DNA from: an uncultured Bacilli bacterium
Lineage (GTDB): Bacteria > Bacillota_I > Bacilli_A > RF39 > UBA660
Length of the DNA stretch: 64,000 nucleotides
Reading direction: 5' to 3'
Assembly: GCA_934119955.1 (NCBI GenBank)
Contig: CAKOSZ010000007.1
Location: forward strand, 5,192 to 69,191
Below are positions 8,116-63,420 of the stretch, in pieces; position 1 is the stretch's first letter, and each line of letters begins with the position of its first letter. The notes beneath the pieces were generated by a model. The model searched no databases, was not told the origin of the DNA, and was given only the letters and a program-made list of their open reading frames with translations. The translations under genes and the position numbers were made by a program.

Positions 8116-8126
8116 TTTTATAAGTT

Positions 8127-19746: not shown

Positions 19747-19763
19747 ATAATTTAGGTATAAGT

Positions 19764-19792
19764 TTGACAAAAAGTGTAAAATATGATAAAAT
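19764..19792 (+). promoter_or_regulatory. sigma-A promoter of the first gene of the T4SS-like block
   Basis: TTGACA, 17 nt, then TGA-TAAAAT (extended -10). AAAGGAG lies 9 nt before the ATG at 19821. Confidence 0.55.
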
Positions 19793-19820
19793 ATGGCCAA
19801 TTAAAAAGGAGTGGGATAGT

Positions 19821-24093: not shown

Positions 24094-24126
24094 TTATATA
24101 TAATTTTAGGAGTGTGATATTAGAAT

Positions 24127-26817: not shown

Positions 26818-26826
26818 AAGTAAAGG

Positions 26827-30089: not shown

Positions 30090-30111
30090 ATAAATGTTTT
30101 AGGAGGCATGA

Positions 30112-44777: not shown

Positions 44778-46226
44778 ATGGATGACTTAACTATTATAAA
44801 AAGAAAATATGGTGAAGGTATGATGCATCTTTGCCGAGAGTTATTTCCAACTATTTTAGATAAAAAAGGTGTCTTGTCTAAAATATTATTAGATAGTTTT
44901 TATCCAAGTAGAGAAATAATAAAAGATTTATTATCAAATGATTTAATATATGATTTTAGAAACTTTATTTTAAGTAAATATAATAAGTTATATAATGTAC
45001 TTCCTTCTTCCTACAAAACAAATAAAACACCTCAGGAACTTTTAGATGAGGCCGGATATATATTATATGAATGTAAAACTAATTCAGAGATTTTAAAGTT
45101 TAAAAAATATTATCAAAAGAAAGAAGAAATATGTACTTTTAAAGAAAATAGATTATTTACACATCATGTTTTCTTTGCTGTAAAAAAAAATGTTAAAGAA
45201 ATTAAAAGAGAAGATTTTTCAAATCCTAAAAGACAAGATTTATATGGAACAAGTGTTATAAGTATTCAATTCACAAAAGATGATAATCATACTTTATCAA
45301 TTAAAAATAGATACAATCATGTAGTTAATAACCCAGATGCAACATTTTCAAATAATTTAGATAATATTATTCCAGGTCTTACTTATAGTTTTTCTAAACA
45401 CTATGGTTTAAATCAATTAAATCCAACCTATAATTTTTCTATTCCAAATTATATTTTAATAAAAGATAAATATTATAAATACAATTTATCAGTTGAGGAA
45501 ACTTATTATTGTCCAGATAACATAGTGATAATTAATGGGGAAGTTAAACAACTAGAAAAAGAAAGATATTTATTTCTTGATAATTCAATTATTAATCTTG
45601 CTAAACATGAATTTATTCATTTTCAAGATGATTATTTAAAAGAACTACTTGGCAAGATAAAAAAAATAGAAATTAGACTTCTAAATGAAAAAAAGCAAGT
45701 TTATATTGTAAATGAAAAACAAGAAGAAACATTTATAACCTTAAATTCTAATAATGAAATAATTGCTTTAAAAAATAATTATGTTAAAGAACTACCTAAT
45801 GATTTTTTATATTATAATAAAAATTTAGAAGTATTAGAACTATTAAATGTTGAAAGAATTGGTAATAATTTCTTGTACCATAACAATGCTTTAAAACATT
45901 TAAGTATACCAAAGGTAAAAAGTATAGGTAATAACTTTTTATATAATAATACTTGTTTGGAAAGTATAGATTTAGAATTTGTTAATAAAATAGGTCACAA
46001 TTTTATTTGGTTAAATAAAATATTAAATGATGTTAGTTTACCTAATTTAGTTCAAGTAGGAGATAATTTTTTATATAGTAATACAAGTCTTAGAACTTTA
46101 AATTTACCTAATTTATTAAAATTTGGTTCTTGTTTTATGATTTCAAATACCGATTTAGAAAATGTTAATATTCCAAAACTTGGGTTTAATTTTCTTAGTA
46201 AAAGTAAAGTATTTAAAAAGTGGTGA
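44778..46226 (+). CDS. BspA-type leucine-rich-repeat protein
   Basis: The C-terminal half has 7 or more ~23-aa repeats of the form ...IGNNFLY.N..L..L.LP.L... (NNFLYHNNALKHLSIPKV / IGNNFLYNNTCLESIDLEFV / GDNFLYSNTSLRTLNLPNL). Confidence 0.6.
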   Translation: MDDLTIIKRKYGEGMMHLCRELFPTILDKKGVLSKILLDSFYPSREIIKDLLSNDLIYDFRNFILSKYNKLYNVLPSSYKTNKTPQELLDEAGYILYECKTNSEILKFKKYYQKKEEICTFKENRLFTHHVFFAVKKNVKEIKREDFSNPKRQDLYGTSVISIQFTKDDNHTLSIKNRYNHVVNNPDATFSNNLDNIIPGLTYSFSKHYGLNQLNPTYNFSIPNYILIKDKYYKYNLSVEETYYCPDNIVIINGEVKQLEKERYLFLDNSIINLAKHEFIHFQDDYLKELLGKIKKIEIRLLNEKKQVYIVNEKQEETFITLNSNNEIIALKNNYVKELPNDFLYYNKNLEVLELLNVERIGNNFLYHNNALKHLSIPKVKSIGNNFLYNNTCLESIDLEFVNKIGHNFIWLNKILNDVSLPNLVQVGDNFLYSNTSLRTLNLPNLLKFGSCFMISNTDLENVNIPKLGFNFLSKSKVFKKW

Positions 46227-49655: not shown

Positions 49656-52256
49656 GTGTTTATGTTAAAAAAAATATTAAGTTTATTAGTAGTGTTTTTT
49701 AGTTTTTTAGTAATTAATGTTAAGGCTGAAATTTATGATTTAAATAGTATTCCAAATAGATCTTATGTTATAGGAAAACATTTATATACAAGAGATTCCT
49801 TAGATGGAAATGCTTTTAATGGAGAATATCAGGGAGTACTTGAAACTAGGTGGTTAATATTTGGTTCTTCTTCTATTGAAAGTACTAATCTTTTAGATAT
49901 GATAGTTTATTATAAAAATCCAGAAGGAGTTTTTCTAGATGCAGCCAATGATTTAGTAATAGATGAAAATAAGTTACCAAAATATTTTGAAATAGAATAT
50001 TTAAATGGTAATAAAATAGAAAATAGTTTTAAAACAAGTATTGTACCTAATAAATTAACAGAAAACAATTATTTATCTCTTGCAACAAAAAGTGTTAATA
50101 TAGAAAAATATGCTGGTTATGATGTTTTTAAAAATTATATTGAAGATGATAATACTATTAATCGTGGTAATAGTAAATTAACTTTTAAAGTTGCAAAAGA
50201 CTTTATTGGTGATAAAGATAATTACTATGATATTACAATTAAATATTTTGATGCAGGACTTGGGACAATTCTTTTACAAGTATCAAATGACTATGATAAT
50301 ACAATTAATTATAGTAAAACTGGCTATGGTGGTTATGTAGAGGAGCCTTGGTGGACTTGGGGAAATGGATATTATTTTAAAAATATGAGTATATGTTTAA
50401 CTAATACTAATACTTGGAAAACTTATACTTTTAGAGTAACTGATACTTTTTTTGAAAAGAATATTGATAATTATCTTCATTTCTATTTTGGAACTAATAA
50501 TAAAAATACAAGTGGAGAAGTTATAAATATTAGAGAAGTAATAGTTACTAAAAAAGTTACTAAAATTTTATCTATTGATAAAAATACTAATAATAATGAA
50601 GCGGTTGTTGGTAATATATATACAGATAGTGATTTTGGTTTAGGATTTAAAGTTTTAAATATTTATGATGAGAATAAAACTTTTAATATTTCTTATAAAA
50701 TACTAGATGATGATGAAAAAACAGTAAGTGAAAAAAATCTTGGTCTTGTAACTATTCCTGCTAATAATCAGGAAATGTTTTACTTAGATAATTCTTTAAA
50801 ATATGGTGTATATAAATTAATTGTATCTGTTAATTATAATGGTATTGTTGAAAATGAGAAAATAGAATTTAGTAAAATGATAAAAGATTTAAGTAATCAA
50901 AAAAATGATTTTTTAGGTGTTTCTAGTCTTTTTGGTTATAGCACGTATTTTCCTGATTCAATTATTCGTGATACAAAAAATGTTTATCAAAAATTAGGAG
51001 TAAGCATAATTAGAAATGGAATAAATGGAAATTTTGTTGCTTCAAATAATAATACCTTAGCAAGTTACATTCCTTTATATGATATTTTAACAAATGAAGA
51101 GGAAGATATGCTTATGAATGTTTGGAATATTGACTCAAATGTTGAAGTTACAAGTGATGGTATTATTACAGATAGTAGTTTTGAAAAATTAAAAACAAGA
51201 ACAATTGAACTTTATAAAATGCTTGCTAATAAATATAAGGGTAAAATAAAATATTATGAAACTTTATGCGAATGGAATAGATTTAGTCCTAAAAATGCTA
51301 TTACTCCTGAACAATATGCTATACTTGTAATAGAAATTAGTAAAGCAGTTAAATCAATTGATAAAAATGCTAAGATAGTTGCTATGAATACAAATAAATT
51401 TCCTATTTATGATGATGCTTATTATGAAGATTATAATCTAGAACATGTAAATGATTATACAAATTATTTAGAAAATTCATGGTTAGTAAGAGCCTTAAAG
51501 ACTAGCATTGATATAGATTTTGACGGGGATGGAACAGTAGAAACTGTAAATGTCTGTGATGTAATAGATGCAATATCAATTCATCCTTATACTATGTCAG
51601 CCACTACTTCCCCAGAAACTAAAATCTCATTAATGAGTTTAACAAAAGAATTAAGAAAATTAATTCAGGATCATACTGATAAAAATATTCCTATCTGGTT
51701 TACTGAATTAGGTCATCCAACTCATGCTTTTGGAGCATCTTTAAAACTACAAGCCGCATTTCTTACAAGAACACTTGTTCTAAGTCAAGCAATGAACGAG
51801 ACAACAAACGTAGAAAAAGCAATTATTTATGAATTACAAAATCAAGGAGCATCTAATTTAAATAGTGAAGCAAATTATGGATTAGTAAATAATTTTAAAG
51901 ATAATAGTTCAAAACCATTTACAAGAGATATTAGTATGTCGGCTAAAAATAGTTATATTGCCATAAATATGTATAGTTATATTTTAAATAATGCTAAATA
52001 TCTTGCTAGTAACGAAAATACCTATGAAACTGATAATTATTTATGGTATAAATTTAAAACAAATGACAATAAAGAAGTAATTGTTACTTGGATAGATGAA
52101 AAAGAAAATATAAGTAAAAATATTAATTTAAATGTTAATATGGGAAAAATAACAATTTATGATATTTATGGAAATACCTTAAATTCATTTGTTAATAATA
52201 AAAATACTATTAATGTTGATGTTAGTTATGAACCAATTTATATTGTTACTACATAA
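49656..52256 (+). CDS. large secreted protein with a C-terminal clan GH-A-like (TIM-barrel glycoside hydrolase) domain
   Basis: Signal peptide. The N-terminal ~450 aa look like beta-rich accessory domains. The C-terminal region has a nucleophile-like motif (WFTELGHPTH) and a possible acid/base motif (CEWNRF). Weak. Confidence 0.4.
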   Translation: MFMLKKILSLLVVFFSFLVINVKAEIYDLNSIPNRSYVIGKHLYTRDSLDGNAFNGEYQGVLETRWLIFGSSSIESTNLLDMIVYYKNPEGVFLDAANDLVIDENKLPKYFEIEYLNGNKIENSFKTSIVPNKLTENNYLSLATKSVNIEKYAGYDVFKNYIEDDNTINRGNSKLTFKVAKDFIGDKDNYYDITIKYFDAGLGTILLQVSNDYDNTINYSKTGYGGYVEEPWWTWGNGYYFKNMSICLTNTNTWKTYTFRVTDTFFEKNIDNYLHFYFGTNNKNTSGEVINIREVIVTKKVTKILSIDKNTNNNEAVVGNIYTDSDFGLGFKVLNIYDENKTFNISYKILDDDEKTVSEKNLGLVTIPANNQEMFYLDNSLKYGVYKLIVSVNYNGIVENEKIEFSKMIKDLSNQKNDFLGVSSLFGYSTYFPDSIIRDTKNVYQKLGVSIIRNGINGNFVASNNNTLASYIPLYDILTNEEEDMLMNVWNIDSNVEVTSDGIITDSSFEKLKTRTIELYKMLANKYKGKIKYYETLCEWNRFSPKNAITPEQYAILVIEISKAVKSIDKNAKIVAMNTNKFPIYDDAYYEDYNLEHVNDYTNYLENSWLVRALKTSIDIDFDGDGTVETVNVCDVIDAISIHPYTMSATTSPETKISLMSLTKELRKLIQDHTDKNIPIWFTELGHPTHAFGASLKLQAAFLTRTLVLSQAMNETTNVEKAIIYELQNQGASNLNSEANYGLVNNFKDNSSKPFTRDISMSAKNSYIAINMYSYILNNAKYLASNENTYETDNYLWYKFKTNDNKEVIVTWIDEKENISKNINLNVNMGKITIYDIYGNTLNSFVNNKNTINVDVSYEPIYIVTT

Positions 52257-52318: not shown

Positions 52319-52864
52319 ATGGAAACAGAGATTATAAATGAATTTGAAGAAAGTTTAAAAAAAGTTTTAGTTAGTTTAGAAGAAAGATTCAAACATATTA
52401 ATGCAGGAAGAGCTAATCCTTCTATGTTAGATGGGGTTATGGTTAATTACTATGGATCTATGACTCCTCTTAAAAGTTTAGTAACAATATCAGTACCAGA
52501 GGCTCGTCAACTTTTAATTAAACCATTTGATAGATCTTGTCTAAGTGCTATTGAAAAAGGAATATTTGAAGCAGATTTAGGTTTTACTCCTAATAATGAC
52601 GGAGAAACAATTAGAATAATTATTCCAATTTTAACTGAGGATAGAAGAAAAGAATTAGTAAGACAAGCCAAGACATTATCAGATGAAAACAAGGTTAGTA
52701 TTAGAAATCAAAGACGTGATACCTTAGAACTTTTAAAAGAAGAAAAATTACCTGAGGATACTTTAAAGGCCTTAGAAGAAAAAGTACAAACCTTAGTAGA
52801 AAAATACAATAAACTTGTTGATAATATGTTAGAGGCTAAAACAAAAGACTTAATGAGTGTTTAA
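52319..52864 (+). CDS. frr: ribosome recycling factor
   Basis: 182 aa from the ATG at 52319 (METEIINEFE...). Typical RRF blocks: INAGRANPSMLD, RRKELVRQAK. Confidence 0.85.
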   Translation: METEIINEFEESLKKVLVSLEERFKHINAGRANPSMLDGVMVNYYGSMTPLKSLVTISVPEARQLLIKPFDRSCLSAIEKGIFEADLGFTPNNDGETIRIIIPILTEDRRKELVRQAKTLSDENKVSIRNQRRDTLELLKEEKLPEDTLKALEEKVQTLVEKYNKLVDNMLEAKTKDLMSV

Positions 52865-52882
52865 AACTCACTAAGTCTTTTA

Positions 52883-53284
52883 TTATTTTAAATATCCTTG
52901 TTCTTGTAGTTCATTTTTTAAAGCATCACTTGAAATATAAGTATTATCTATTCTTGTTAAAATACTATTTTCTATACCATTTTTAATAAATACTATGATG
53001 TTACTGTCAGTAAAAGTAATTTTACTTTGTAATTCTTCTTTTTCACTACTACTAAGCTTATCAGTACTTAAATAAAAACATTTAAGATTATTTTCTTTAC
53101 TAACTTTTTTTAAAGTGTTTTTTAAAGTATTACCATTATCTGTATTATCAGTTAATAATAATACAAAAGTTTCTTTCTTATCGAGTTTATTATTTAAACT
53201 TTTATAACTTAATCTACTAAGTCCATTACTACTACAAGCAGTTAGCATAAACAATGCTATTAAAACAACAAATATTTTCTTCAT
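52883..53284 (-). CDS. small lipoprotein (hypothetical)
   Basis: Signal peptide ending in lipobox LTACS. 133 aa. Convergent with frr; a shared hairpin lies at 52845-52882. Confidence 0.5.
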   Translation of the reverse strand: MKKIFVVLIALFMLTACSSNGLSRLSYKSLNNKLDKKETFVLLLTDNTDNGNTLKNTLKKVSKENNLKCFYLSTDKLSSSEKEELQSKITFTDSNIIVFIKNGIENSILTRIDNTYISSDALKNELQEQGYLK

Positions 53285-53375: not shown

Positions 53376-54035
53376 ATGAAAAGATTAAAGATAATATTAA
53401 TGATAGTTCTATTTTTTATAACTACAAATGTTTTTGCAATAGACAATTGTACAAATGATGAAATGAAAAGATTAAGAGAACTTGCTAATAATGTAAAAAT
53501 TAATTATGAATATACTGTTGATGATGAAATTATAGAAGAAGAAACAGTATATGTTCATTATAATATTAAAGTAATAAATTTAAGTGATGATTTAAAAATA
53601 TATTATAATGGAGAAGATAATAATTTAAGATTATATTCAAAAGAAGAAATAGAAAATATGGAGTTTTCATCAGGAACAACTCATAAATTTTATTTGTATT
53701 CTTATACTAATAATTTATGTACTGATGAATTAATAAAAACAATTTCAGTTAAATTCCCAGTTGTAAATTCTTATTATTACTTTAATAAAGAAAAGTGTTT
53801 GAACAATCAAGATTTTAAATATTGTAAAGAATTTTCTAATGAAGAAAATTATAGTTTTGAAGAAATTGATAAAATGTTTGATGATTATTTAAATAAGGGT
53901 AATTCAAATAATGGTAATCAAATTAATAAATATTTAACTAAATATATTTATTATATTATAGGAATAATAATTTTGATTTTAGTTATAGTGATTGTAATAA
54001 TTAAAGTCAAAAAAAATAAAAAAGAAGATATTTAG
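53376..54035 (+). CDS. Cys-rich secreted protein with a C-terminal TM anchor (module copy 1, small subunit)
   Basis: Signal peptide MKRLKIILMIVLFFITTNVFA, conserved Cys (CTN...LCT...KC...YC), C-terminal helix IIGIIILILVIVIVII and a KNKKEDI tail. Paralogue at 56544. Confidence 0.5.
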   Translation: MKRLKIILMIVLFFITTNVFAIDNCTNDEMKRLRELANNVKINYEYTVDDEIIEEETVYVHYNIKVINLSDDLKIYYNGEDNNLRLYSKEEIENMEFSSGTTHKFYLYSYTNNLCTDELIKTISVKFPVVNSYYYFNKEKCLNNQDFKYCKEFSNEENYSFEEIDKMFDDYLNKGNSNNGNQINKYLTKYIYYIIGIIILILVIVIVIIKVKKNKKEDI

Positions 54036-54043
54036 AGGTTTAT

Positions 54044-56470
54044 ATGAAAAAAGTATATAAAGTATTATTATTAACTTTGCTATTTTTTATATTTTCTCTT
54101 AATGGAAATGCTGATGAAGTAACTAATAAAAAAGGTGATTTAAGGTGTAATCCAGAAAATAAAACTTCTTGTGAGGAGATAAAAAATAGTAATGGAGAAG
54201 TTATTCAAGTAAATGTAGCAACTGATGTTATTAAAAATGATGGTGATATTCAAGTTATTAAACATGTAAAAAAAACTAATATACTAGGTGAATTAGAAAT
54301 ATGGTTTACTATAAAAGGAAAAAATATTGAAATTATTCAATCAGGTAAAGATGCATATGTCATTGTAGTTTTTGATACATCTTCAACTATGAAAAGTGGT
54401 TCTCAACTAGAAAGTGCTAAATCTGCTATTAAAACATTTAGCAAAGTGTTATATTCGAATAAACCAGAAGGAGTTAATTATTATTTAGCTGCTATTCAAT
54501 TCGCTGAATATTCAAAAATTATTAGAAATTTTGCAAATAAAGATTTTAGTGATATGAGTTTTTCTAGTAGAAGTAGTTTAGGTTCAAAATCTGAATTAGG
54601 TTATGCCTACCATGATGTATATAACTTATTAGCAAAAGTTCCTGTTGAAGATAAAAAATATGTAGTTTTATTTGGCGATGGAAGATATTATAATGGATAT
54701 AATTGTTCAGTTTATTCCCATAAAGGTAAAAATAATAAATATGATACTCACTGTGATGTTTTAGATGCAAATTATGCTAAAATTCGAGATAGTTATAAAG
54801 AATATATTAGTATTTATGGTATTCTTTATAGTGGTGGTAGTTTACATAATGTATTAGATAATAAAATAAATAAGAAAAAGACTGTTTGTTATGATAAATA
54901 TCGTGGCGATTGTGATAAAATGTTTATGCAAAAGTATACAGATACTTATCTTGATGCAAGAGAATGTAATAGTAAATATAGTAGTTGTAAAAAAGATCCG
55001 AATTACGAAGATTACTTTAAAGAAATTGCTAAAATAATTAATTCTGATAAAACTTATCCTGTAAATATATCGGCTAGTTTAGAAGATAGAATAGGTTCTT
55101 CATTTGATATTATAGGTTCTAGTGATAAAAGTAAAAAAATTACAATTAAAAATATAACTGAAAATGGAGTAGAAACAGAACACTTTAAAATAAAAATAAA
55201 TGATAATGCTCTTGATGGTTGGAATGATACTAACAATGGTTTTAATTTAACTTATGATAAAAAAGTAATAAGTAATAATAATAATCCTCAAATGTATTGG
55301 AAAGAAATGATTTGCACAGATAGTATAACTGATGAAAAAGAAAAAGTAATTAAATCATGTAGTGGTACAGAAAGTATAGATTTAGAAATAAAATCAAATT
55401 GTCAAAGTGAAAAGAAAATATATTATGATATATCATGTGATGAAAAAATAACTGCTGGTATTAAAATAAATAATTTAAAAGATGGGGTTAAGAAATTTAG
55501 TATAGATAAAGGTTTAGGTTTTCCTGCTAATTTAAACTTAAAAACTGATTTAGAATGTAATTACGTATTTTATAAAGGTTTATATGATAATGATTATAAT
55601 AAGTTAACTCTTGAAATTTCTAAGGAAACTGATGAGAAAATAATTCATAGTAAAACTAAAAAACTTAATGAAATGAAATCATATTTAGAAACTTATAATA
55701 GTTATTTAAATAATTTAAATGATTATAAAACTAATGTATTCTCAAATCAAGCAGCAACTTTAAAAGTTAAAGTTTTAGATAATTCCTATGATTATCAAGA
55801 TTTCATTAATTCAAAATTTAAAATAAATGAAGATAATTGTAAGGATACAGAAAACTATCAAGATGGATTTAAAGTTACAACGAAAACTTGTTCTTTAAAG
55901 ATGGAAAAAGATATGATTTTGACTGAAAAATGCTTGAATATGAAAGATGGAAGTGTTGAAAACTGTACTAATTCGAATAAACAAATAAAAGGAGGAAATA
56001 AATATTATACAAGCATAAATAAAAATTCAGGAAGTGTCTTTGTAGAAATTAATTCACTTGGATATGCCTCAGTTGTAAATAATAAATCTAATATAAGTAT
56101 TAAATTAGAAGACTGTGAATATGAAACAGGTAAATTATATAAAGATAAAATATCATTTAGACAAATAGAATTATCTGATCCTTTCTTAAAATCTTATACT
56201 AATTCAAAAAGAGAAATAGGTAAGAATTATCTAAATACCAAATATGACTTTGTAAGTATTATAAAACCAGATATTTGGTCTTTATCTACTAGTGACTATA
56301 AATTTTCATTAAGTAAAATAAATGTAAGTAATATAAGGCATGATACAAATAATTTAGGCATTTCATCTTATCTTGGAAGTGATTGTTATATTAGTAATAC
56401 TAATAAATATGTTTGTAAATTCTTTGAGGATAGTGAAAAAAACAATTTCTTTACAAATACATCAAAATAA
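54044..56470 (+). CDS. large secreted Cys-rich VWA-domain protein (module copy 1)
   Basis: Signal peptide, N-terminal conserved block KKGDLRCNPENKTSCEEIKNSNGEVIQ...IQVIKHVKKT, a VWA MIDAS-like motif (YVIVVFDTSSTMK), more than 20 Cys and no C-terminal anchor. Paralogue at 57200. Confidence 0.55.
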   Translation: MKKVYKVLLLTLLFFIFSLNGNADEVTNKKGDLRCNPENKTSCEEIKNSNGEVIQVNVATDVIKNDGDIQVIKHVKKTNILGELEIWFTIKGKNIEIIQSGKDAYVIVVFDTSSTMKSGSQLESAKSAIKTFSKVLYSNKPEGVNYYLAAIQFAEYSKIIRNFANKDFSDMSFSSRSSLGSKSELGYAYHDVYNLLAKVPVEDKKYVVLFGDGRYYNGYNCSVYSHKGKNNKYDTHCDVLDANYAKIRDSYKEYISIYGILYSGGSLHNVLDNKINKKKTVCYDKYRGDCDKMFMQKYTDTYLDARECNSKYSSCKKDPNYEDYFKEIAKIINSDKTYPVNISASLEDRIGSSFDIIGSSDKSKKITIKNITENGVETEHFKIKINDNALDGWNDTNNGFNLTYDKKVISNNNNPQMYWKEMICTDSITDEKEKVIKSCSGTESIDLEIKSNCQSEKKIYYDISCDEKITAGIKINNLKDGVKKFSIDKGLGFPANLNLKTDLECNYVFYKGLYDNDYNKLTLEISKETDEKIIHSKTKKLNEMKSYLETYNSYLNNLNDYKTNVFSNQAATLKVKVLDNSYDYQDFINSKFKINEDNCKDTENYQDGFKVTTKTCSLKMEKDMILTEKCLNMKDGSVENCTNSNKQIKGGNKYYTSINKNSGSVFVEINSLGYASVVNNKSNISIKLEDCEYETGKLYKDKISFRQIELSDPFLKSYTNSKREIGKNYLNTKYDFVSIIKPDIWSLSTSDYKFSLSKINVSNIRHDTNNLGISSYLGSDCYISNTNKYVCKFFEDSEKNNFFTNTSK

Positions 56471-56543
56471 AAAAAATAAAGGAGTTTAATTGCTCTTTTA
56501 TTTTTTCTATGCTATAATTTTTCTAGATATAATAAGGAGCAAT

Positions 56544-57191
56544 ATGAAGTATAAAAGTATTTTATTGATTGGTTTATTTTTTATAACCACAAATGTTTTT
56601 GCAATTAATGATTGTACAAATTCTGAGATGAAAAGATTAAATGAACTTGCTAATAATGTTAAAATAACTTATGATTATGTTATTGATGAAGAAATAGAAA
56701 AAAGAACAATAGCAGGATTTTTTTATGTACAAATTAATAATTTAAGTGATGATTTACAAATATATCTTAAAGATATGTCAGGTAATTTAAAATTATATTC
56801 AAAGGATGAAATAGAAGAAAATGATTTTAATTTTAATACAACAGAAAAATTTTATATTTATTCATATACTGATAATTTATGTACTAATAAATTAATAAAA
56901 ACAATTACAATTAAATTTCCAAGTGTAAATCCTTATTACTATTACAATAAAGAAAAATGTATAGAACATACTGATTTTAAATATTGTCAAGAATTTTTAA
57001 ATCATGATTTAGATCTTGATGAAATAGATGAGATGTATAATGAATACATAAATAAAAATAATATTAATGATCAAAAAACAAAAACATTTAATAAAAATTA
57101 TATATATATAATAACTGCAAGTTTTTTAATAATATGTATAATTATATTTATTGTAATTAAAATAAGAAAAAATAAAAAAGAAGATATTTAG
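56544..57191 (+). CDS. Cys-rich secreted protein with a C-terminal TM anchor (module copy 2, small subunit)
   Basis: Paralogue of 53376-54035 with the same Cys spacing, the same C-terminal anchor and the same KNKKEDI tail. RBS AAGGAG before the ATG at 56544. Confidence 0.5.
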   Translation: MKYKSILLIGLFFITTNVFAINDCTNSEMKRLNELANNVKITYDYVIDEEIEKRTIAGFFYVQINNLSDDLQIYLKDMSGNLKLYSKDEIEENDFNFNTTEKFYIYSYTDNLCTNKLIKTITIKFPSVNPYYYYNKEKCIEHTDFKYCQEFLNHDLDLDEIDEMYNEYINKNNINDQKTKTFNKNYIYIITASFLIICIIIFIVIKIRKNKKEDI

Positions 57192-57199
57192 AGGTTAGT

Positions 57200-59620
57200 A
57201 TGAAAAAGATATTTACATTAGTAATATTGTTATTAATTATAGTTCCTTATTCAGTTGGTGCTAGTAAAAAAGGTGATTTAAGATGTAATCCTGATAATAA
57301 AACTTCATGTAAAGAAATAAAAAACTCTAATGGAGAAGTAATTCAAACAGATGTAACAAGTGGAAGTTTAGATAAAGAAGGCGATATTCAAATTATCAAA
57401 CATGTTAAAAAAACTGAAACAATTGGAGAATTTAAGGTGTGGTTTACAATTAAAGGAAAAGGAATAAAGTCTCAAAACAAGTATAAAAAAACTAAGATTG
57501 TTTTAATATTAGATATGTCACATACAGTAGAAGATTCTATTAGGGAAATAACATCAGCAACTAAAAAATTTTATAATTCCTTTAAAGATATTGATGAAAT
57601 ACAAATTTCTATTATCCAGTTTGCTACTAATGCCAAAAAAATTAATATAAATAATGGAAATTTTGAATTATGTGGATATAATGATACAAAAAGTGGATGT
57701 AAATTAAAAACAAAGTCTCATGTTGAAAAAGCCTTGAAAATTGCTAATAATGAATTAAGTGGTGAAGATCAAAAATATATTGTTCTTTTAGGAGATGGGC
57801 AATATTGGTCAGAAAATGACACAGAAACAGATGATGCGGTTAATTGGTTTAAAAATTTAAACAACAATGGAGTTAAATTTTTTATGATTCAATATGAGGG
57901 GGGAGAAAGTGAATATTCTGAAATGAGAAAATGCGCCAAAGGTTCAAAGGCAAGTAAAAGGCGTTTTGATTTAGGTTGTAAAAGTGGTTATTCTAATAAA
58001 AATCCAGTTCAATATAATGGTGCCTACATATCTACATATATAAAGCCTGTAAAATGGTGGTGTAAATATGATATAGGAAGCGGTTCTTTTCGTGATAGAT
58101 ATTGGTGCACTAATAATAGTGTAATAAATAGTTATGAAGAAGTTTTCAATAGTGTAGTTAATGAAATTAAAGAAAATGTTAAAAATGATAATGCTGTTGA
58201 TGCAACATTAAGCGATAGATTAGGTGAAGAATTTACTATTTTGGATACTACTTTAAAAGAAAAAAATATGAAGATAGATAAAATAACTGAAAGTGGTATA
58301 GATACACCTGCGTTTAATGTTGTAATTGATTCTATGGCTGAATCTGATAAATGGCATGACACTAACAATGGTTTTACTTTATCATTGCCAAATGACAATA
58401 ACATTGGTTGTAACGATAATCCCGAAGTATATTGGATTCAAACTAAATTAAGTTGTGAAAATGCAATTAATGAACCAGTTGTTAATGAAATTAAGGGTTG
58501 TAGTGGCCAATCTCCATCAATCAATAATACAATAACTACTAATTGTGGGGCTAATGATTTACATTATACAATTACGTGTTTAGAAGGATATCAAGATAAT
58601 GGAAAAGACATACCAGGTTATACTGCTAATATAAATATAAATAATATAACAAAAAATGAAAATAAATTTAATATAAAATCTGGTCTTGGCTTTCCAATAA
58701 ATATTTCTTTAAATACAAATATTTATTGTAAATATGAATTTAATGAAACTAATTTTAACAAAGATTATCAATATGTTTTAAATAGTATAAATATTACGAA
58801 GGATTCTAAAAAAAGATATAGTTTAGAACAACTTAAAATTAATTTAGAAAATGAATTAATTTCTTATCAAGAAAAATTAAAAAATTTAGAAGATTATCAG
58901 AATAGATTTAATGAACAAACAGCAACTTTAAAAGTTAATTATAATGAAAAAATAACTGATATTCAACAATTTAAAAATAAAAGCGTGAGTGATAGTGAAA
59001 TTAAATGTGTAACTACTAAAAAAAGTACTGTAAATTCCCAAGAAATTGAATCAAAAGAGTGTTATTTATCAATGAATAAGAAAATGGAATTAGAAAGTGT
59101 TTGCCTAGATATAAAAACAGGAAAAGTTGAAAAATGTACTTCATCTAATACACAGTTGTCAGGAGGAAATAAGTATTATACTAGTTTAACTGAAAAAGAG
59201 GGCTCAGTTTTTGTAAATATTTCTGATGCAGGATATGATAATAATTTAACAATTAATTTAACGGGGTGTACTACATCAAGTGACAAAACAGGTTTTAATG
59301 TAGTACTTAGACAAATAGAATTATCTGATCCTTTCTTAAAATCTTATACTAATTCAAAAAGAGAAATAGGTAAGAATTATCTAAATACCAAATATGACTT
59401 TGTAAGTATTATAAAACCAGATATTTGGTCTTTATCTACTGGTGACTATAAATTTTCATTAAGTAAAATAAATGTAAGTAATATAAGGCATGATACAGAT
59501 AATTTAGGTGTTTCATCTTATCTTGGAAGTGATTGTTATATTAATAATTTGAATAAATATGTTTGCAATTTCTTTGAGGATAGTGAAAAAAACAATTTCT
59601 TTACAAATATAGAAAAATAA
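57200..59620 (+). CDS. large secreted Cys-rich VWA-domain protein (module copy 2)
   Basis: Paralogue of 54044-56470. N-terminal KKGDLRCNPDNKTSCKEIKNSNGEVIQ, MIDAS-like IVLILDMSHTVED, and a C-terminal ~105 aa almost identical to copy 1. Confidence 0.55.
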   Translation: MKKIFTLVILLLIIVPYSVGASKKGDLRCNPDNKTSCKEIKNSNGEVIQTDVTSGSLDKEGDIQIIKHVKKTETIGEFKVWFTIKGKGIKSQNKYKKTKIVLILDMSHTVEDSIREITSATKKFYNSFKDIDEIQISIIQFATNAKKININNGNFELCGYNDTKSGCKLKTKSHVEKALKIANNELSGEDQKYIVLLGDGQYWSENDTETDDAVNWFKNLNNNGVKFFMIQYEGGESEYSEMRKCAKGSKASKRRFDLGCKSGYSNKNPVQYNGAYISTYIKPVKWWCKYDIGSGSFRDRYWCTNNSVINSYEEVFNSVVNEIKENVKNDNAVDATLSDRLGEEFTILDTTLKEKNMKIDKITESGIDTPAFNVVIDSMAESDKWHDTNNGFTLSLPNDNNIGCNDNPEVYWIQTKLSCENAINEPVVNEIKGCSGQSPSINNTITTNCGANDLHYTITCLEGYQDNGKDIPGYTANININNITKNENKFNIKSGLGFPINISLNTNIYCKYEFNETNFNKDYQYVLNSINITKDSKKRYSLEQLKINLENELISYQEKLKNLEDYQNRFNEQTATLKVNYNEKITDIQQFKNKSVSDSEIKCVTTKKSTVNSQEIESKECYLSMNKKMELESVCLDIKTGKVEKCTSSNTQLSGGNKYYTSLTEKEGSVFVNISDAGYDNNLTINLTGCTTSSDKTGFNVVLRQIELSDPFLKSYTNSKREIGKNYLNTKYDFVSIIKPDIWSLSTGDYKFSLSKINVSNIRHDTDNLGVSSYLGSDCYINNLNKYVCNFFEDSEKNNFFTNIEK

Positions 59621-59632
59621 AAATATATTTTC

Positions 59633-59681: not shown

Positions 59682-60239
59682 GTGGCTTTGAAATCAGCGA
59701 TGTGGATGGTGTTTATTTTTGTTCTTGGAGTTATTGGAATAGTTTTAATTAATGTTTTTGGTAATATTACAACAACTAATCAACAAGATTATACTTTAAT
59801 TAAAAATACAGTTGAAGCAGCAATGTATGATTCAATTGATGTAGCATCATATCGATCAGGTTTTTATCTTTGTACTAATGCCTCAGCAAGTGATAAAATA
59901 ACTTTTACTTCTAAAAATGATTATGCAATTCTTTTAAATAATGATATTACTCAAAGTAATTTAGACAATTATAAAAAATGTGATTTTTTAGTAGGAGAAG
60001 TTAAGTTAAAAGCCGATGTATTTGCTGAAAGTTTTTTAAGAAGATTTTCAAGTGATGTGAACAATAACAAAAGTTATCAAATAACTATTCAAGAAGTAAT
60101 AGAATATCCACCTAAGGTAAGTGTTAGAATTGACACATATAATTCATATAATAATAAAATTGAAACTTCACAAGAGTTTCAAACAGGGGATTTTAAAATT
60201 CGTAATCAAATAGATGCAATATTTGAAGAAAAAAATTAG
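59682..60239 (+). CDS. N-terminally membrane-anchored protein (possible TadE/TadG-class pilus accessory protein)
   Basis: Single N-terminal TM (WMVFIFVLGVIGIVLINVFG) with the rest extracytoplasmic. It is the first gene of the Tad-like operon. No G/xxxxE prepilin motif. The start is ambiguous among GTG 59682, TTG 59688 and ATG 59700. Confidence 0.3.
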   Translation: MALKSAMWMVFIFVLGVIGIVLINVFGNITTTNQQDYTLIKNTVEAAMYDSIDVASYRSGFYLCTNASASDKITFTSKNDYAILLNNDITQSNLDNYKKCDFLVGEVKLKADVFAESFLRRFSSDVNNNKSYQITIQEVIEYPPKVSVRIDTYNSYNNKIETSQEFQTGDFKIRNQIDAIFEEKN

Positions 60240-60257: not shown

Positions 60258-61052
60258 ATGAAAAAATTAAAACAAATTTTATCAAACAAAAATACAGTTA
60301 CATTTATAGCAGCCATATTAATTGTGCTAGTTCTATATATATTCTATAATTGGAGAGTTAGTCAAGCAACTAGTCCAATTCGTATACCTTATGCTAATCA
60401 AACCATTAATCCAAGAACAAAGATTACAAATGAAATGATATCATACTTAGAAATGCCATCAACTGCTGTTAAAGGTAATGTTGTAACAAATGCTAATAAT
60501 ATTGTTGGAATGTACACTAATGTAAACGGAGTAATTCCAGCAGGAAGTTTATTTTATAGTAGTCAAATAGTAAGACAAGAAGAACTACCAGACTCATTTC
60601 TTTTAAATATTCAAGATGGATATATTCCTTATAACTTTGATGTTAATATGAAATCAACTTATGGTAATTCAATTTATCCAGGTAATTATGTTGATGTTTA
60701 TTTTAAAGGAGTTCAAAATGGTAAATTAATGATTGGTAAACTTCTTGAAAATGTTAAAGTATTATCAGTTAAAGATGCAAGTGGTCGTCCTGTATTTGAA
60801 ACAAGTGACAATGATAGAGTACCTAGTCAAATTATATTTGCTGTAACACCTGAAATACATTTATTACTTAGAAAAGCAGAGTATTTAAGTGCTGTTAAAA
60901 TAATTATTGTACCTAATAATACATCTTTAAAACTTGAAGATGGTGAAGAAGATGTAGCAGTTACTGTTAAAAGCGAAACAATTAAAAACTTTATTGAAGA
61001 ACAATCAGTATACGTTGATGAAACTGAATCAATTGATGATACTAATAATTAG
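60258..61052 (+). CDS. cpaB: Flp-pilus assembly protein CpaB/RcpC-like (SAF-domain)
   Basis: N-terminal TM (VTFIAAILIVLVLYIF), then a SAF-like segment (IPYANQTINPRTKITNEMISYLEMP). Size and position match CpaB immediately upstream of the CpaF ATPase. Confidence 0.5.
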   Translation: MKKLKQILSNKNTVTFIAAILIVLVLYIFYNWRVSQATSPIRIPYANQTINPRTKITNEMISYLEMPSTAVKGNVVTNANNIVGMYTNVNGVIPAGSLFYSSQIVRQEELPDSFLLNIQDGYIPYNFDVNMKSTYGNSIYPGNYVDVYFKGVQNGKLMIGKLLENVKVLSVKDASGRPVFETSDNDRVPSQIIFAVTPEIHLLLRKAEYLSAVKIIIVPNNTSLKLEDGEEDVAVTVKSETIKNFIEEQSVYVDETESIDDTNN

Positions 61053-61060: not shown

Positions 61061-62512
61061 ATGAATCAAGGTATAAATGCATATGATTTAACTTCAAATA
61101 ATCAAGAAAAAACTAATACCGAGATAAATGCTGATTTATTTTCTAGTATTGACTTTGGTCCTTTAAAACCATTTTTAGATGATGATAATATAACTGATAT
61201 TTCATATAGTAATAATGGTCAAGTATGGTTAAAATCACTTGATAGAGGAGTTTACCGAGTAGAAAATACTGGAATTAATAACGAATTAATAGAAAAAATT
61301 GCTTTTCAGTGTGCTAATATCATGGGTAAAACGTTTAACATGGCAAGTCCTCTTTTAGATAGTGAATCAACTGAACTTCGTATGAATTTTATCCACGATT
61401 CAATTGCTAGAAATGGAATTGCTGCTGTGTTTAGAAAAACACCAGCCAAGATTAGATTGAAGAAAGAAAAAATAATAAGTGATAAATACATAACCTTAGG
61501 AATACATGACTTTTTAATCGAATGTGTTCATGGTCATTGTAATATAATTGTATCCGGTGAAACTGGATCTGGTAAAACTGAGCTTGTTAAATACTTAGCA
61601 AGCCATACTAAGGAAAATGAAAAAATTATAACTATTGAAGATACTTTGGAACTACACTTAGATGTAATATTTCCACATCGAGATATTGTTGCTATGAAAA
61701 CTAATAATATTGCTTCATATAGTGACGTTTTAATAGGATGTATGAGGCAAAACCCTAAATGGATATTATTATCAGAAGTAAGATCCGCAGAAGCAGTTAC
61801 AGCAGTTCGTAACTCTATCTCATCAGGACACAATATTTTGTCAACAATTCATGCTGATAAAGCATCAAGTATTCCGTATCGTTTGTATAGTTTGCTTGAA
61901 AGCAACATTGATGTTGAACAATTTATGACAACTATTTATAGATATATTCAATTAGGTGTTCATGTAAGAGCAAGATATGATAAAGTAACAGGTAAATTTA
62001 TGAGAGAAGTTTGTGAAGTATGCGAATTTCATGTAAATAAAGATAATAAACCAGAGAGTAATATAATATATAGAAAAAATATTGATGGAACGGAAATACT
62101 TAATTCTCCAAGTCCATATCTAATAGATTATTTAGAAGGACAAGGAATTGATTTAGCAAATAAAAACTTTGATAATTTAAAAATAGATTTACCATTTAAT
62201 AATCAAGTTGATACTACTAGTCAAGGTTCAAATAATACAAGTGTTAATACTAATATTAATACTACTAATGTTAATCAAAATATGAATAATACTTTAACTA
62301 ATAATGTAACTAATACGGTTAGTAATGATGTAGTTAATAATACAAATAATACAGTTAATAATCATAATATTAATAATAATGTTAATAATTCGACTGATAC
62401 ATTACTAGTTGATGAACCAACTTTAAGTACTCAAAGTAATGTAGCAACTAATGTGGTAAATCAAAATAATATAAATAATAATCCAATAATTGATAATGAT
62501 GAAATTTTATAG
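61061..62512 (+). CDS. tadA: CpaF/TadA-family type IV pilus (Tad) secretion ATPase with an Asn/Thr-rich C-terminal extension
   Basis: Walker A VSGETGSGKTEL, Walker B/Asp box ILLSEVRSAEA, and His box GHNILSTIHA. The last ~110 aa are low-complexity N/T/V. Confidence 0.8.
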   Translation: MNQGINAYDLTSNNQEKTNTEINADLFSSIDFGPLKPFLDDDNITDISYSNNGQVWLKSLDRGVYRVENTGINNELIEKIAFQCANIMGKTFNMASPLLDSESTELRMNFIHDSIARNGIAAVFRKTPAKIRLKKEKIISDKYITLGIHDFLIECVHGHCNIIVSGETGSGKTELVKYLASHTKENEKIITIEDTLELHLDVIFPHRDIVAMKTNNIASYSDVLIGCMRQNPKWILLSEVRSAEAVTAVRNSISSGHNILSTIHADKASSIPYRLYSLLESNIDVEQFMTTIYRYIQLGVHVRARYDKVTGKFMREVCEVCEFHVNKDNKPESNIIYRKNIDGTEILNSPSPYLIDYLEGQGIDLANKNFDNLKIDLPFNNQVDTTSQGSNNTSVNTNINTTNVNQNMNNTLTNNVTNTVSNDVVNNTNNTVNNHNINNNVNNSTDTLLVDEPTLSTQSNVATNVVNQNNINNNPIIDNDEIL

Positions 62513-62523: not shown

Positions 62524-63420
62524 ATGGAATTTATAATAATACTTTTTATTGTATTCTTTGTTGTTTTATATCGAAAAAGCAATGGTGAATCTTTGTATAA
62601 ATTTGTAACAACTAGTATAGGTAATGTCTATGATAAATATGCTCCCTATTCATTTAAAAATATAAGAGAAAGATGTAAAGAAATGGGACTTGAATATACT
62701 AAAAAACAGTATACTGTTCAAGTAATAGTATTTACTTTAATTGCCTTTATTATATCTTATTTATATTTTTATAATGTAGTAGTTGCTTTCTTTTATGTTG
62801 TGTTAGTAGATGCTTTTATACCATATCTTGCATATTTAAGGTGTAAAAGATTATATAGTGAATTTATTTTTGAACAAGTTCAAGTATATGTAACAAATAC
62901 AATAATGGAATTTCAAACAACTCAAAGTTTTGTTAAAGCCTTAGAAGGTGTATATGAGTCAGGTGTATTAGAAGAACCACTAAAAACAGATGTAAAAGTT
63001 ATGATTGATCTTGCTTATCATAATGGTGATGTAGGTGAATCAATTGATTATATGAATAGTAAGTATGACTTTTATATGACAAGAAATATGCATCAATTAT
63101 TCTTGCAAGTTACAAGAGAAGGTGCACATGATACAGTTGAAGTATTAGATAATATGCTTTTAGATGTTGACCAATTAGTAGAAGGTGTTTATCAAGATAG
63201 AATGAATAGAAGTGCCTTTCATCAAGCATTTATTAGATATGGATTACTATTATATTTAATGGTAATGCTTGTACAATGGTTGATTGGGAAAGAAACCTAT
63301 ATCGAAATGGTAAACTCGAACATAATTCTTCAAATAGGACTTCATATTGTAATACTATTTAATAGTTATTTCCTATTATCAGGAGAAAAATATTATAATG
63401 AGAATGTGGGGGCTGAATAA
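62524..63420 (+). CDS. tadB: TadB-like inner-membrane platform protein (T2SS-F domain)
   Basis: Polytopic, with a GspF-like cytoplasmic domain between TM helices. Translationally coupled (TAATG) to the next gene. Confidence 0.5.
   Translation: MEFIIILFIVFFVVLYRKSNGESLYKFVTTSIGNVYDKYAPYSFKNIRERCKEMGLEYTKKQYTVQVIVFTLIAFIISYLYFYNVVVAFFYVVLVDAFIPYLAYLRCKRLYSEFIFEQVQVYVTNTIMEFQTTQSFVKALEGVYESGVLEEPLKTDVKVMIDLAYHNGDVGESIDYMNSKYDFYMTRNMHQLFLQVTREGAHDTVEVLDNMLLDVDQLVEGVYQDRMNRSAFHQAFIRYGLLLYLMVMLVQWLIGKETYIEMVNSNIILQIGLHIVILFNSYFLLSGEKYYNENVGAE

Follow-up and report, generated by a model that had tools for sequence, protein, structure and literature searches.

PilY1 of P. aeruginosa carries a VWA domain at its N-terminus. 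Proteins of the PilC/PilY1 group are retained on the tips of type IV pili by their last ~10 residues via β-strand addition (PMC13533445), and the VWA-bearing TadG/CpaL and S. sanguinis PilB, which occur with Tad or type IV pili, are also thought to be located at the tip (PMC13533445, PMC12075869, PMC6916266). Moreover, the Tad pilus of Myxococcus accepts four interchangeable tips (PMC12075869). Monoderm Tad pili have been studied almost only in Actinobacteria, and target binding of any Tad pilus is poorly understood (PMC6916266).

The locus described here belongs to an uncultured Bacilli bacterium and lies in a window of 64,000 nucleotides (the whole stretch of DNA that was analysed; contig CAKOSZ010000007.1), where two consecutive units of a small and a large gene precede a Tad-type operon. 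With chances that we judge about even, each unit is a two-part surface adhesin cassette working with the adjacent Tad (type IVc/Flp) pilus. The features of the locus are as follows.

52883-53284, minus strand: divergently transcribed lipoprotein, 133 aa, lipobox LTAC, thioredoxin-like pattern without CxxC
53376-54035, plus strand: small protein A gene, 219 aa, ORF intact
54044-56470, plus strand: large protein A gene, 808 aa, ORF intact
Large A by residue: signal peptide aa 1-24; Cys loop and Ig-like strands aa 31-100; VWA/MIDAS aa 101-335; Ig return aa 336-420; Cys-rich C-module with helical hairpin aa 421-700; conserved tail aa 701-808
54125-55303, plus strand: N-module of large A (aa 28-420), putative ligand-binding head, PDB profile match to SpaC
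55304-56143, plus strand: C-module of large A (aa 421-700), β-rich, three-helix insertion at aa 511-566, 8 conserved Cys
56144-56467, plus strand: conserved tail of large A (aa 701-808, ~105 aa), RQIxLSDPF...IGxNY...W...C..C, N/S/G-rich linker, FFTNTSK
56544-57191, plus strand: small protein B gene, 215 aa, ORF intact, paralogue of small A (56% identity)
57200-59620, plus strand: large protein B gene, 806 aa, same architecture as large A
59307-59623, plus strand: gene-converted 3' segment of large B, 95.9% nt identity to 56157-56473 of large A (blastn, unit against unit)
59682-60239, plus strand: DUF5411 protein (Pfam DUF5411 E 1e-34), N-terminal TM helix and ~150-aa ectodomain
60258-61052, plus strand: RcpC/CpaB-like Flp pilus assembly protein (Pfam RcpC E 1.9e-8; NCBIfam pilus_cpaB E 8e-12, below cutoff)
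61061-62512, plus strand: TadA/CpaF-type secretion ATPase (Pfam T2SSE E 6e-27)
62524-63420, plus strand: polytopic, platform-like membrane protein in the TadB position, no Pfam match

The original prediction held that two consecutive pairs of a small and a large gene occupy 53376-56470 and 56544-59620, and all four ORFs are found intact at these coordinates. The junction that it described within each unit was likewise recovered, as both small genes terminate in ...KNKKEDI-TAG, the GAGGTT of the ribosome-binding site overlaps this stop in both cassettes, and the ATG of the large gene stands 8 nt past it. The mechanical ORF of small B reaches a TTG at 56490, but the ATG at 56544 has an AAGGAG 5 nt ahead of it. 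A separate promoter-like sequence precedes each of the cassettes as well as the tad operon, with no terminator-like site between them, according to a scan that is uninformative in AT-rich DNA (61 promoter-like sites vs 71.6 expected, 0 terminators). As for phase-variation features, the locus shows no invertible repeats and homopolymer tracts not above background, and an Rfam search of the region returned nothing.

Paralogy of the two units, as claimed earlier, is far above chance, both for large A and large B (BLASTP E 5e-166) and for small A and small B (E 2e-73, 56% identity). The ~45-50% identity assigned to the large paralogues has to be lowered to 41% overall, spread very unevenly along their length: 23% in the VWA, 64% in the N-terminal loop/Ig region, 27-41% in the C-module, and 88% in the last 108 aa. 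Over their final 317 nt, the two large genes reach 95.9% identity, whereas the other nucleotide matches that could be detected lie at 66-76%. The 3' segment of large B (59307-59623) also shows 87% identity to the cassette X tail of other strains. The tails of the paralogues have been homogenised by gene conversion. The paralogy behind the proposed old duplication stands, but a single old event is too simple a description of what is a cassette array with strain-variable content, exchanged heads, and homogenised tails.

Cassette copy number is 1 or 2 across loci, and strains of the same species differ in their arrays (X-A, X-A', and A-B). Head exchange takes place where the domains join, and the breakpoints fall at aa ~370-410; compared with P0002/P0003, large A is only 24-26% identical in the VWA and 90-100% identical in the remainder, a mosaic pattern. 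Between genomes, TadA is 80-89%, TadB 73-95%, and frr 70-87% identical, whereas the small proteins share 35-48% and the large proteins 27-39%. In this contrast of rates, the cassettes behave as surface-exposed, diversifying genes. Cassettes were found, as the original prediction had proposed to look for, in other gut Bacilli MAGs, and a second word-index search using the alignment added almost nothing. The cassette-bearing uncultured gut Bacilli are widespread, occurring in human (Hadza), roe deer, and rabbit guts.

The N-terminal ~415 residues of the large proteins are homologous to ordinary sortase-anchored VWA adhesins. The N-module of large A matches SpaC in a PDB profile search (E 4e-17, profile positions 71-349) and Pfam VWA_2 below threshold; the VWA of large B lies under Pfam detection with its MIDAS residues intact, and large B matches the N-module HMM at E 1e-102. 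The motifs VFDTSSTMK and ILDMSHTVE, previously described as MIDAS-like, belong to a genuine MIDAS, whose five positions (D111, S113, S/T115, S/T183, and D212) are conserved in 46/46 family sequences. The N-terminal Cys loop is invariant in the large proteins, which contain 20 and 21 Cys, and at 12 positions of large A the Cys is kept by at least 40 of the 46 family members. Both N-termini are classical signal peptides with a small-residue cleavage site (..NGNA↓DEV and ..SVGA↓SKK), of a type common to sortase substrates. The earlier likening to TadG is not sustained in the sense of class membership, given the Sec signal peptide, the lack of a pilin-like N-terminus, and no Pfam match to TadE/Tad. 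The large proteins are probably VWA/MIDAS adhesins.

Relatives in which the similarity is confined to profile positions 1-~415 have MucBP or Cna_B domains, and their C-termini consist of PPQTG, PPKTG, or LPETG followed by a TM segment and a basic tail, and the gene of one such head-only relative lies directly 3' of a sortase gene, without a small partner. The small gene of the cassettes occupies the place held by the sortase gene beside head-only relatives. The source organism has a sortase of its own together with a TED/SpaA adhesin bearing a sorting signal (35185-38428); this sortase (37763-38428, Pfam Sortase E 1.3e-16) is 15 kb from the cassettes, beside that different adhesin. The C-termini of the two large proteins (...NNFFTNTSK and ...NNFFTNIEK) show no sorting motif and no TM segment, and neither protein has a Pfam match to Cna_B or SpaA.

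For the C-terminal half of the large proteins, searches of Pfam, NCBIfam, PHROGs, PADLOC, and the sequences of the PDB gave no match. The C-module, for which AF2 pLDDT in large A is mostly 80-94, seems on these searches to belong to no known family, and it is also fused to a different, non-VWA head in ~700-aa relatives. No other segment is as well conserved across the family as the tail (43-52% identity vs 19-33% for the VWA), which has no match in Pfam, NCBIfam, or PDB and shows a pLDDT of ~37-54 over most of its length when modelled in isolation. Most of the tail-bearing sequences listed end, after a flexible linker, in the motif [FWY]F[TS]x[VI]x[IV]N[DE], and the terminal FFTNTSK of large A is amphipathic and β-strand-like; the tail is a candidate docking element. 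Its assignment as a WxL wall-binding domain was rejected, as W is invariant but the single WxL-like tripeptide is not conserved, and the cassette proteins gave no Pfam match to DUF916/DUF3324 or WxL domains at E up to 0.1. Residues 350-808 showed no Pfam or PDB sequence match at all, and hence none to the PilC/PilY1 C-terminal β-propeller domain. The large proteins are mosaics of a sortase-type adhesin head and a C-module and tail that these searches place in no described family. The small protein and the rear half of the large one still fit the earlier view of a novel system outside any recognised family, but the head, which is of the sortase-anchored VWA adhesin type, does not; a check for placement in a known tip-adhesin family had the same divided outcome, with the head matching SpaC by profile and the C-terminal half matching nothing.

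The small proteins are, according to structural models, predicted type-I membrane proteins with an FN3/Ig-like ectodomain. Small A begins with a signal peptide and a conserved N-terminal helix (CTxxEMxRLxELANNV), continues with an FN3/Ig-like β-sandwich and then a Cys loop (NKEKC..DFKYCxEF), and is anchored by a TM segment that follows a stalk helix and leaves KKNKKEDI as the cytoplasmic tail. The four Cys reported as conserved are invariant in 25 homologues. Searches of Pfam, NCBIfam, PHROGs, PADLOC, and PDB sequences placed the small proteins in no family and returned TM-driven noise only. A degenerate sortase or known chaperone was discarded as an identity, given the FN3-like model with a C-terminal anchor and no Sortase Pfam match. 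A GGDEF-small fusion (P0053) was also set aside as a clue to signalling; it is most likely a chimeric assembly, because a truncated GGDEF is joined mid-domain on a contig of only 2.6 kb.

The divergently transcribed lipoprotein adjoins the cassettes in every locus with upstream DNA available (29-56% identity), and its lipobox Cys is invariant in the alignment. Its homologues in loci L001 and L012 have a weak PedC-like Pfam match, which the window copy lacks. A role as disulfide oxidoreductase for the Cys-rich proteins was rejected, since CxxC is absent from 11/11 homologues.

Across 20 loci, every tail-bearing large gene is clustered with a small gene, usually with a gap of at most 11 nt or an overlap. 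The small partner tracks the C-module and not the VWA head, as large proteins with the non-VWA head have a matching small-protein clade. Mirror-tree support for co-variation of the small protein and the C-module is weak and clade-dependent (Mantel r 0.40, p 0.004; with one clade removed, r 0.20, p 0.17), and distances of small proteins and tails show no correlation (r 0.01). In a divergent clade, two large genes share a single small gene placed downstream and, therefore, 1:1 pairing is not universal. The small and large proteins more likely than not form a complex.

The genes downstream of the cassettes are of the Tad type, as had been recognised (RcpC/CpaB, T2SSE/TadA, and a platform-like membrane protein). 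The DUF5411 gene, whose product has no PDB relative, is the first of this operon and lies directly 3' of the last cassette. In complete operons, the gene in the TadB position is followed by those for a second platform-like protein, an Flp-like prepilin, and a TadE-like protein. The two platform-position proteins are polytopic (298 and 261 aa) and have no Pfam matches; the prepilin (56-61 aa) has a weak Flp1_like match (E 5.5e-4, below cutoff) and shares an M[KR]EAxG leader with the TadE-like protein (138-140 aa). No prepilin peptidase was seen in the operon. Among the gut Bacilli MAG loci compared, 14 non-redundant ones have informative downstream DNA, and in 13/14 the last cassette stands directly before DUF5411-RcpC-TadA-TadB, so that the linkage to the Tad operon posited at the outset is largely kept. 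This synteny persists in the rearranged divergent clade. At one locus (L002/L006), the genes that come after the only cassette are unrelated ones (DUF6020/GtrA), with no tad genes adjacent and, therefore, tad adjacency is not obligatory.

In the mechanism that we propose, Sec would export the large protein, about six disulfides would give it stability, and its VWA head would bind an external ligand through the MIDAS metal-ion site. This head would descend from tip or surface adhesins that Gram-positive bacteria normally attach by sortase, the stalk and sorting signal having been replaced by a new Cys-rich C-module and a ~105-residue tail composed of a linker and an amphipathic β-strand. Translational coupling would keep the proportion of small to large protein fixed, and the small protein, Ig-like and anchored in the membrane, could be the partner by which the large protein is held or escorted there. 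The tail, kept identical among paralogues of one genome, would most likely dock on a single shared component of the pilus system and, therefore, alternative heads could be mounted on one machine. Recombination at the conserved 5' and 3' ends of the cassettes and at the head/C-module junction would generate strain-specific adhesin repertoires. Docking at the tip by C-terminal β-strand addition is a tentative suggestion, which we regard as doubtful. A similarly speculative proposal, more likely wrong than right, is that the cassettes represent a class of tip adhesins of Gram-positive Tad pili not described before, which are interchangeable, secreted by Sec, and not pilins. In this class, a sortase-pilus head would have been grafted on a new docking module, the small protein would be a membrane escort that hands the adhesin to the machine, and the tail would lock by C-terminal β-strand addition onto a pilin-like component, either DUF5411 or the TadE-like protein, forming a Tad counterpart of PilY1-PilK whose host or ligand specificity is set by cassette shuffling.

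Non-covalent C-terminal wall-binding domains that are conserved are common in Gram-positive bacteria, and the large proteins could also be adhesins independent of the Tad pilus, held non-covalently on the cell body by the small partner or by a wall-binding tail, with the proximity to tad reflecting a shared colonisation neighbourhood between frr and tad. This explanation is possible, if somewhat unlikely: it agrees with the Sec signal, the lack of pilin features, the promoter-like sequences of the cassettes themselves, and the locus without adjacent tad genes, and a membrane-anchored Ig-like partner would be enough in principle to tether a secreted protein. Nevertheless, the adjacency to DUF5411-RcpC-TadA is maintained in 13/14 loci, even in the rearranged divergent clade, despite large-protein identities of 27-39%. 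Moreover, the tail matches no known wall-binding family and its WxL-like tripeptide is not conserved, and the homogenisation of tails within a genome fits a single protein partner at least as well as wall binding. The functional dependence of the cassettes on the Tad pilus is, in our estimation, evenly poised.

The unchanging place of the cassettes at the start of the tad operon could alternatively indicate a structural or assembly part of the monoderm Tad machine, such as a wall-spanning conduit or a factor replacing the RcpA/RcpB/TadD/TadG of diderm systems, with the VWA serving assembly instead of adhesion. Elsewhere among bacteria, the assembly of Tad pili requires VWA proteins such as TadG/CpaL (PMC13533445, PMC6916266). 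Core parts do not, however, vary in copy number or strain content, have their heads swapped for a non-VWA domain, or show such low identity next to TadA/TadB, and the head is homologous to bona fide adhesins, all of which makes this role improbable. Even less credible is a contact-dependent effector or toxin whose delivery the Tad pilus would assist in the manner of the Myxococcus Kil system, the small protein being its cognate immunity or receptor-blocking protein. The Tad pilus is used in killing by Myxococcus (PMC12075869), and a variable large secreted protein tightly paired with a small co-varying partner, polymorphic at strain level, is typical of effector-immunity loci; however, Pfam, NCBIfam, PADLOC, and PDB revealed no toxin or enzyme domain in the cassette proteins, the variable N-terminal head and conserved C-terminus are the reverse of polymorphic toxins, and the upstream, translationally coupled small gene suggests co-assembly over protection.

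A cassette working with the Tad pilus is the reading that we prefer, and the locus is a compact, naturally variable system in which a sortase-pilus head has apparently been re-used on another display route, next to the genes of a Tad machine. Should the pilus connection be true, non-pilin adhesins could be mounted on Tad pili, the principle of β-strand addition would extend to a new setting, and cassette exchange would explain strain-specific colonisation. The family of the C-module and tail and the small partner family would obtain their first functional context, and DUF5411 would likewise acquire one.

Compared with the tip adhesins SpaC (L. rhamnosus GG), RrgA, GBS104, and PitA, the window proteins likewise have a Sec signal, a MIDAS VWA inserted between Ig-like strands, a variable adhesive head at the N-terminus, and, putatively, the attachment function at the C-terminus. 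Unlike the SpaC/RrgA/GBS104 class, they lack a Cna_B/isopeptide stalk, an LPXTG-type signal, a linked pilus sortase, and a backbone pilin, and have instead a Cys-rich C-module, a tail, a small membrane partner, and linkage to Tad. With the type IVa proteins PilC/PilY1 they share being large Sec-secreted non-pilins encoded beside pilus genes, with a putative C-terminal attachment in the present case; the window proteins end in a conserved linker and an amphipathic strand motif, which by analogy may act through strand addition. They differ from PilC/PilY1 in the Tad class of the pilus, in their dedicated, C-terminally anchored partner, and in that no PilK-type minor pilin was identified. TadG/CpaL resemble them in the VWA domain and in a gene within or beside the tad locus, but TadG/CpaL and PilB have a pilin-like N-terminal hydrophobic segment with pilin-type processing or insertion, whereas the window proteins start with an ordinary signal peptide of the cleavable kind. 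A pilin-like character is common to the Tad tip components that are known (TadE/F/G, CpaL, and the Kil tips), but the large proteins of the window lack it. A parallel in organisation is the Kil system of Myxococcus, which combines, as the window locus may do, alternative, partly redundant specificity modules with one Tad machine and has a variable domain thought to recognise the target (PMC12075869). However, the Kil tips are minor-pilin trimers from separate clusters, whereas the modules of the window are non-pilin pairs that stand in tandem at a single site and are shuffled from strain to strain.

Two consecutive cassettes, each with a gene for a small membrane-anchored protein followed by one for a large secreted VWA protein, lie in the window, which is strongly AT-rich (GC ~19–37% in 2-kb windows and 22–25% over the region), and all four ORFs proved intact, in agreement with the original prediction:

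Small A, 53376–54035, + strand, 219 aa, intact ORF
Large A, 54044–56470, + strand, 808 aa, intact ORF
Small B, 56544–57191, + strand, 215 aa, intact ORF
Large B, 57200–59620, + strand, 806 aa, intact ORF

Both small genes end in KNKKEDI-TAG, the stop codon of each is overlapped by GAGGTT, and the ATG of the large gene lies 8 nt past the stop; in related loci, the small and large genes overlap by 1–11 nt. This arrangement fits the translational coupling that had been proposed within each unit.

Large A and large B share 41% identity (E 5e-166), and small A and small B share 56% (E 2e-73). Along the large proteins, identity is strongly unequal:

Identity between large A and large B, by region
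N-terminal loop/Ig part: 64%
VWA domain: 23%
C-terminal module: 27–41%
Last 108 residues: 88%

The final 317 nt of the two large genes are 95.9% identical, whereas other detectable DNA matches reach only 66–76%, and the near-identical 3′ ends bear the signature of gene conversion, not of simple old divergence. Moreover, paralogues group within each genome for the small protein, the N-module (the head, aa 28–420 of large A) and the tail (aa 701–808), which speaks for concerted evolution or duplication within lineages and against a single ancient event. Thus, the paralogy of the two units stands, but the suggested old duplication with ~45–50% identity is too simple an account, given the lower and uneven identity and the homogenised tail.

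Curated profile libraries gave only a VWA_2 match below threshold for large A and no match for large B. Among 5.8 billion proteins, a word-index search returned only 16 clusters; among 1.84 billion representatives, exhaustive profile searching returned ~50 that are full-length and revealed a modular family. The N-module (profile positions 1 to ~415) also occurs in proteins of 600–1700 aa with MucBP or Cna_B domains, which end in PPQTG, PPKTG or LPETG, a hydrophobic segment and a basic tail and are ordinary sortase substrates; the gene for one of them directly follows a sortase gene and lacks a small partner. PDB sequence matches of the family profile are confined to the head, the best being SpaC, the tip adhesin of the sortase pilus of L. 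rhamnosus GG (E 4e-17), over the VWA domain and the strands on either side. A further comparison gave figures of 19.9 for Mfa5, 18.4 for SpaC, 17.2 for PitA, 16.5 for S. sanguinis PilB, 15.9 for RrgA and 15.6 for GBS104. The MIDAS residues D111, S113, S/T115, S/T183 and D212 are kept in 46 of 46 sequences, which bears out the VWA/MIDAS-like motif recognised earlier, and 12 Cys positions recur in 40 or more of the 46. Two of these, C35 and C43, form a loop immediately after the signal peptide. The conserved start of the mature N-terminus, KGD[LVI], is common to the large proteins and their sortase-anchored relatives (KGD at 54134–54142 in large A and 57263–57271 in large B), whereas the invariant Cys-x7-9-Cys loop that follows it is found only in the large-protein family.

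The C-module (aa 421–700) and tail, at profile positions ~410–793, also occur in proteins of ~700 aa with another, non-VWA head (F-x-G-x-YNYEV...GWAI-NAGV), in which no Pfam domain was found. The C-module has 8 of the 12 conserved Cys and is modelled as β-rich, residues 511–566 forming an inserted group of three helices, and the tail has C781 and C791. The last ~105 residues are the best-conserved part of the family, with 43–52% identity where the VWA domain has 19–33%, despite a pLDDT of only ~37–54 over most of the tail. The second tail Cys is followed by an N/S/G-rich linker that varies in length and then, in most tail-bearing sequences listed, a terminal motif with alternating hydrophobics (FFTNIEK, WFTKVEINE, LFSKVEIND or YFTNIYNL). 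The large proteins have no sorting signal, TM segment or lipobox. The view that they fit no recognised family thus holds for the C-module and tail, which, like the small partner, are undescribed families, but not for the head, which is homologous to those of SpaC-class tip adhesins.

Homologues of the small protein form 44 clusters, 0 of them annotated. Its AF2 model (mean pLDDT 83.7) begins with a signal peptide and a conserved helix (CTxxEMxRLxELANNV), continues with an FN3/Ig-like sandwich of seven strands and a Cys loop (NKEKC...DFKYCxEF), and closes with a long helix that leads into a TM segment and a short cytoplasmic stretch ([KR]n-x-[ED]D[LI]-COOH); the signal peptide and C-terminal anchor originally assigned to it are both present. 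It is neither a sortase nor a known chaperone, given the FN3-like fold and the lack of a Sortase match. An apparent fusion on a 2.6-kb metagenome contig (P0053), in which a truncated GGDEF domain is joined mid-domain to a small homologue, is most likely a chimeric assembly. The small partner seems to follow the C-module rather than the head, since large proteins with the other head have small partners in a clade of their own. The Mantel correlation between small protein and C-module is r 0.40 (p 0.004), or r 0.20 (p 0.17) without the other-head clade; co-variation between small protein and tail is absent (r 0.01).

On the 3′ side, the cassettes are followed by genes for a DUF5411 membrane protein, RcpC/CpaB, a TadA-type ATPase and a platform-like membrane protein. 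Complete tad operons, from relatives and the same species, also hold a second platform-like protein, a Flp-like prepilin of 56–61 aa and a TadE-like protein of 138–140 aa that share an M[KR]EAxG leader, a protein of 329–335 aa and several small membrane proteins. In the same-species locus L021, the Flp-like protein has 61 aa (17070–17255) and the TadE-like one 140 aa (17273–17695). DUF5411, a Pfam family with a name but no assigned function, gave only one incidental mention in a full-text search. After the tad genes, L001 (20754–22435) and L021 (18787–19968) carry 3–4 paralogous small two-TM proteins with Cys-rich C-termini and weak matches to Gram-positive T4SS_pilin (E 0.003–0.01), an odd companion of a Tad operon. 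On the 5′ side lie frr and a divergent gene for a 133-aa lipoprotein:

Lipoprotein, 52883–53284, − strand, thioredoxin-like pattern with no Cys at the CxxC position, adjoining the cassettes in all loci

A near-perfect 22-nt hairpin between the convergent frr and lipoprotein genes (52840–52884) is probably a bidirectional terminator. Just upstream of frr, an 866-aa secreted protein (49656–52256) has no Pfam or NCBIfam match; an 864-aa counterpart occupies the same place in same-species strains (L021, L022).

All loci found come from MAGs and metagenomes of uncultured 'Bacilli' or 'Clostridia', those with a stated source being human (Hadza), roe deer and rabbit guts. When 20 loci were mapped with HMMs, all tail-bearing large genes fell into clusters that also contain a small gene and that for the lipoprotein, with 1 or 2 cassettes per locus. 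The last cassette is directly followed by DUF5411(-RcpC-TadA-TadB) in 13 of the 14 non-redundant loci with downstream DNA (the exception being L002/L006), so the predicted position upstream of a Tad operon is a conserved one. A divergent clade (L010, L016, L017, L019) has the order large-large-small-lipoprotein(−)-DUF5411, a DUF5411 protein grown to 412–500 aa through an insertion, a duplicated RcpC and a TadA extended to 612–623 aa.

Identity of relatives to the window copy
TadA: 80–89%
TadB: 73–95%
frr: 70–87%
Small: 35–48%
Large: 27–39%

Judged by these identities, the cassette proteins evolve much faster than the Tad machine and than a housekeeping gene. In addition, the site is occupied by different arrays on contigs that come from the same or a sister species and whose flanks are 94–96% identical to the window (X, A′ and A″ being cassettes of other strains):

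L021: X (216+755 aa) - A - tad
L022/L023: X - A′ - tad
L024: ... A″ - tad
Window: A - B - tad

In C-module and tail, A′ and A″ (P0002 and P0003) match A at 90–100% amino-acid identity, but in the VWA domain at only 24–26%. The DNA breakpoints, at ~55150–55275 in the window, correspond to residues ~370–410, the junction of N- and C-modules.

The organism is a Gram-positive that has a cell wall and a sortase route in working order: the window encodes a Mur ligase and FtsW/RodA, as well as a sortase whose gene overlaps the end of an adhesin gene:

TED/SpaA adhesin and sortase gene, 35185–38428, 869-aa adhesin with thioester (TED) and three SpaA-type domains, ending VPKTS + TM + KKH

Lack of a sortase is thus not the reason why the large proteins have no sorting signal. 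Other surface or mobile genes encode a protein with a cadherin-like β-sandwich domain (32567–33994), a PD-(D/E)XK transposase-like protein (43764–44693) and a BspA-type LRR protein (44778–46226). A PGK RNA motif lies at 18772–18863, and a cluster of 12 tRNA genes (6789–8200) accounts for the GC-rich stretch at 6–8 kb. A conjugation-type T4SS cluster (19743–32463), probably an integrated conjugative element, includes:

19743–21575 and 21901–24093, large ORFs without Pfam match
25030–26817, VirB4/TraG-P-loop ATPase
26827–29397, 856-aa protein with C39-like peptidase domain
30112–32463, VirD4/TraG coupling protein

The large protein is exported by Sec, is rich in disulfides, bears an intact MIDAS head like that of tip adhesins and has lost the sortase route; it has a membrane-anchored Ig-like protein as its obligatory neighbour and a conserved position before the Tad operon, and its head evolves in a fast and mosaic manner while its tail is conserved and homogenised. 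It probably functions as an adhesin, which the small protein would tether or escort and whose tail would dock on one common partner within the Tad system. A tail that does not co-vary with the small protein, yet is near-identical between the paralogues of one genome, would fit such a shared docking site. A cell-surface adhesin independent of Tad, held in place by the small partner or by a tail that binds the wall, is a less probable but serious possibility, in line with the one locus that lacks tad genes and with the non-pilin nature of the cassette proteins. It is improbable that these proteins are a structural part of a monoderm Tad machine, which would account for their place beside the operon but not for a varying copy number, swapped heads and fast evolution. 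An effector–immunity pair is more improbable still, since Pfam, NCBIfam, PADLOC and PDB searches detected no toxin domain and it is the wrong end of the large protein that varies.

For an adhesin docked on the Tad system, several known systems offer comparisons. SpaC-class tip adhesins share the homologous head, but have a sorting signal, a Cna_B stalk and pilus sortase linkage, all absent from the large proteins. Neither are these TadG/CpaL, since they lack the pilin-like N-terminus, nor PilC/PilY1, since the C-terminal domain of the latter is missing. The flexible linker and terminal amphipathic strand of the tail nevertheless recall the geometry of PilC/PilY1, in which the final ~10 residues supply an extra β-strand to the minor pilin PilK and keep the adhesin on the tip (PMC13533445). 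In function, the large proteins would most resemble the PilY1-type non-pilin tip adhesins, and a Tad machine served by several interchangeable modules would have a likeness in the Myxococcus Kil pilus, with its four tips (PMC12075869).
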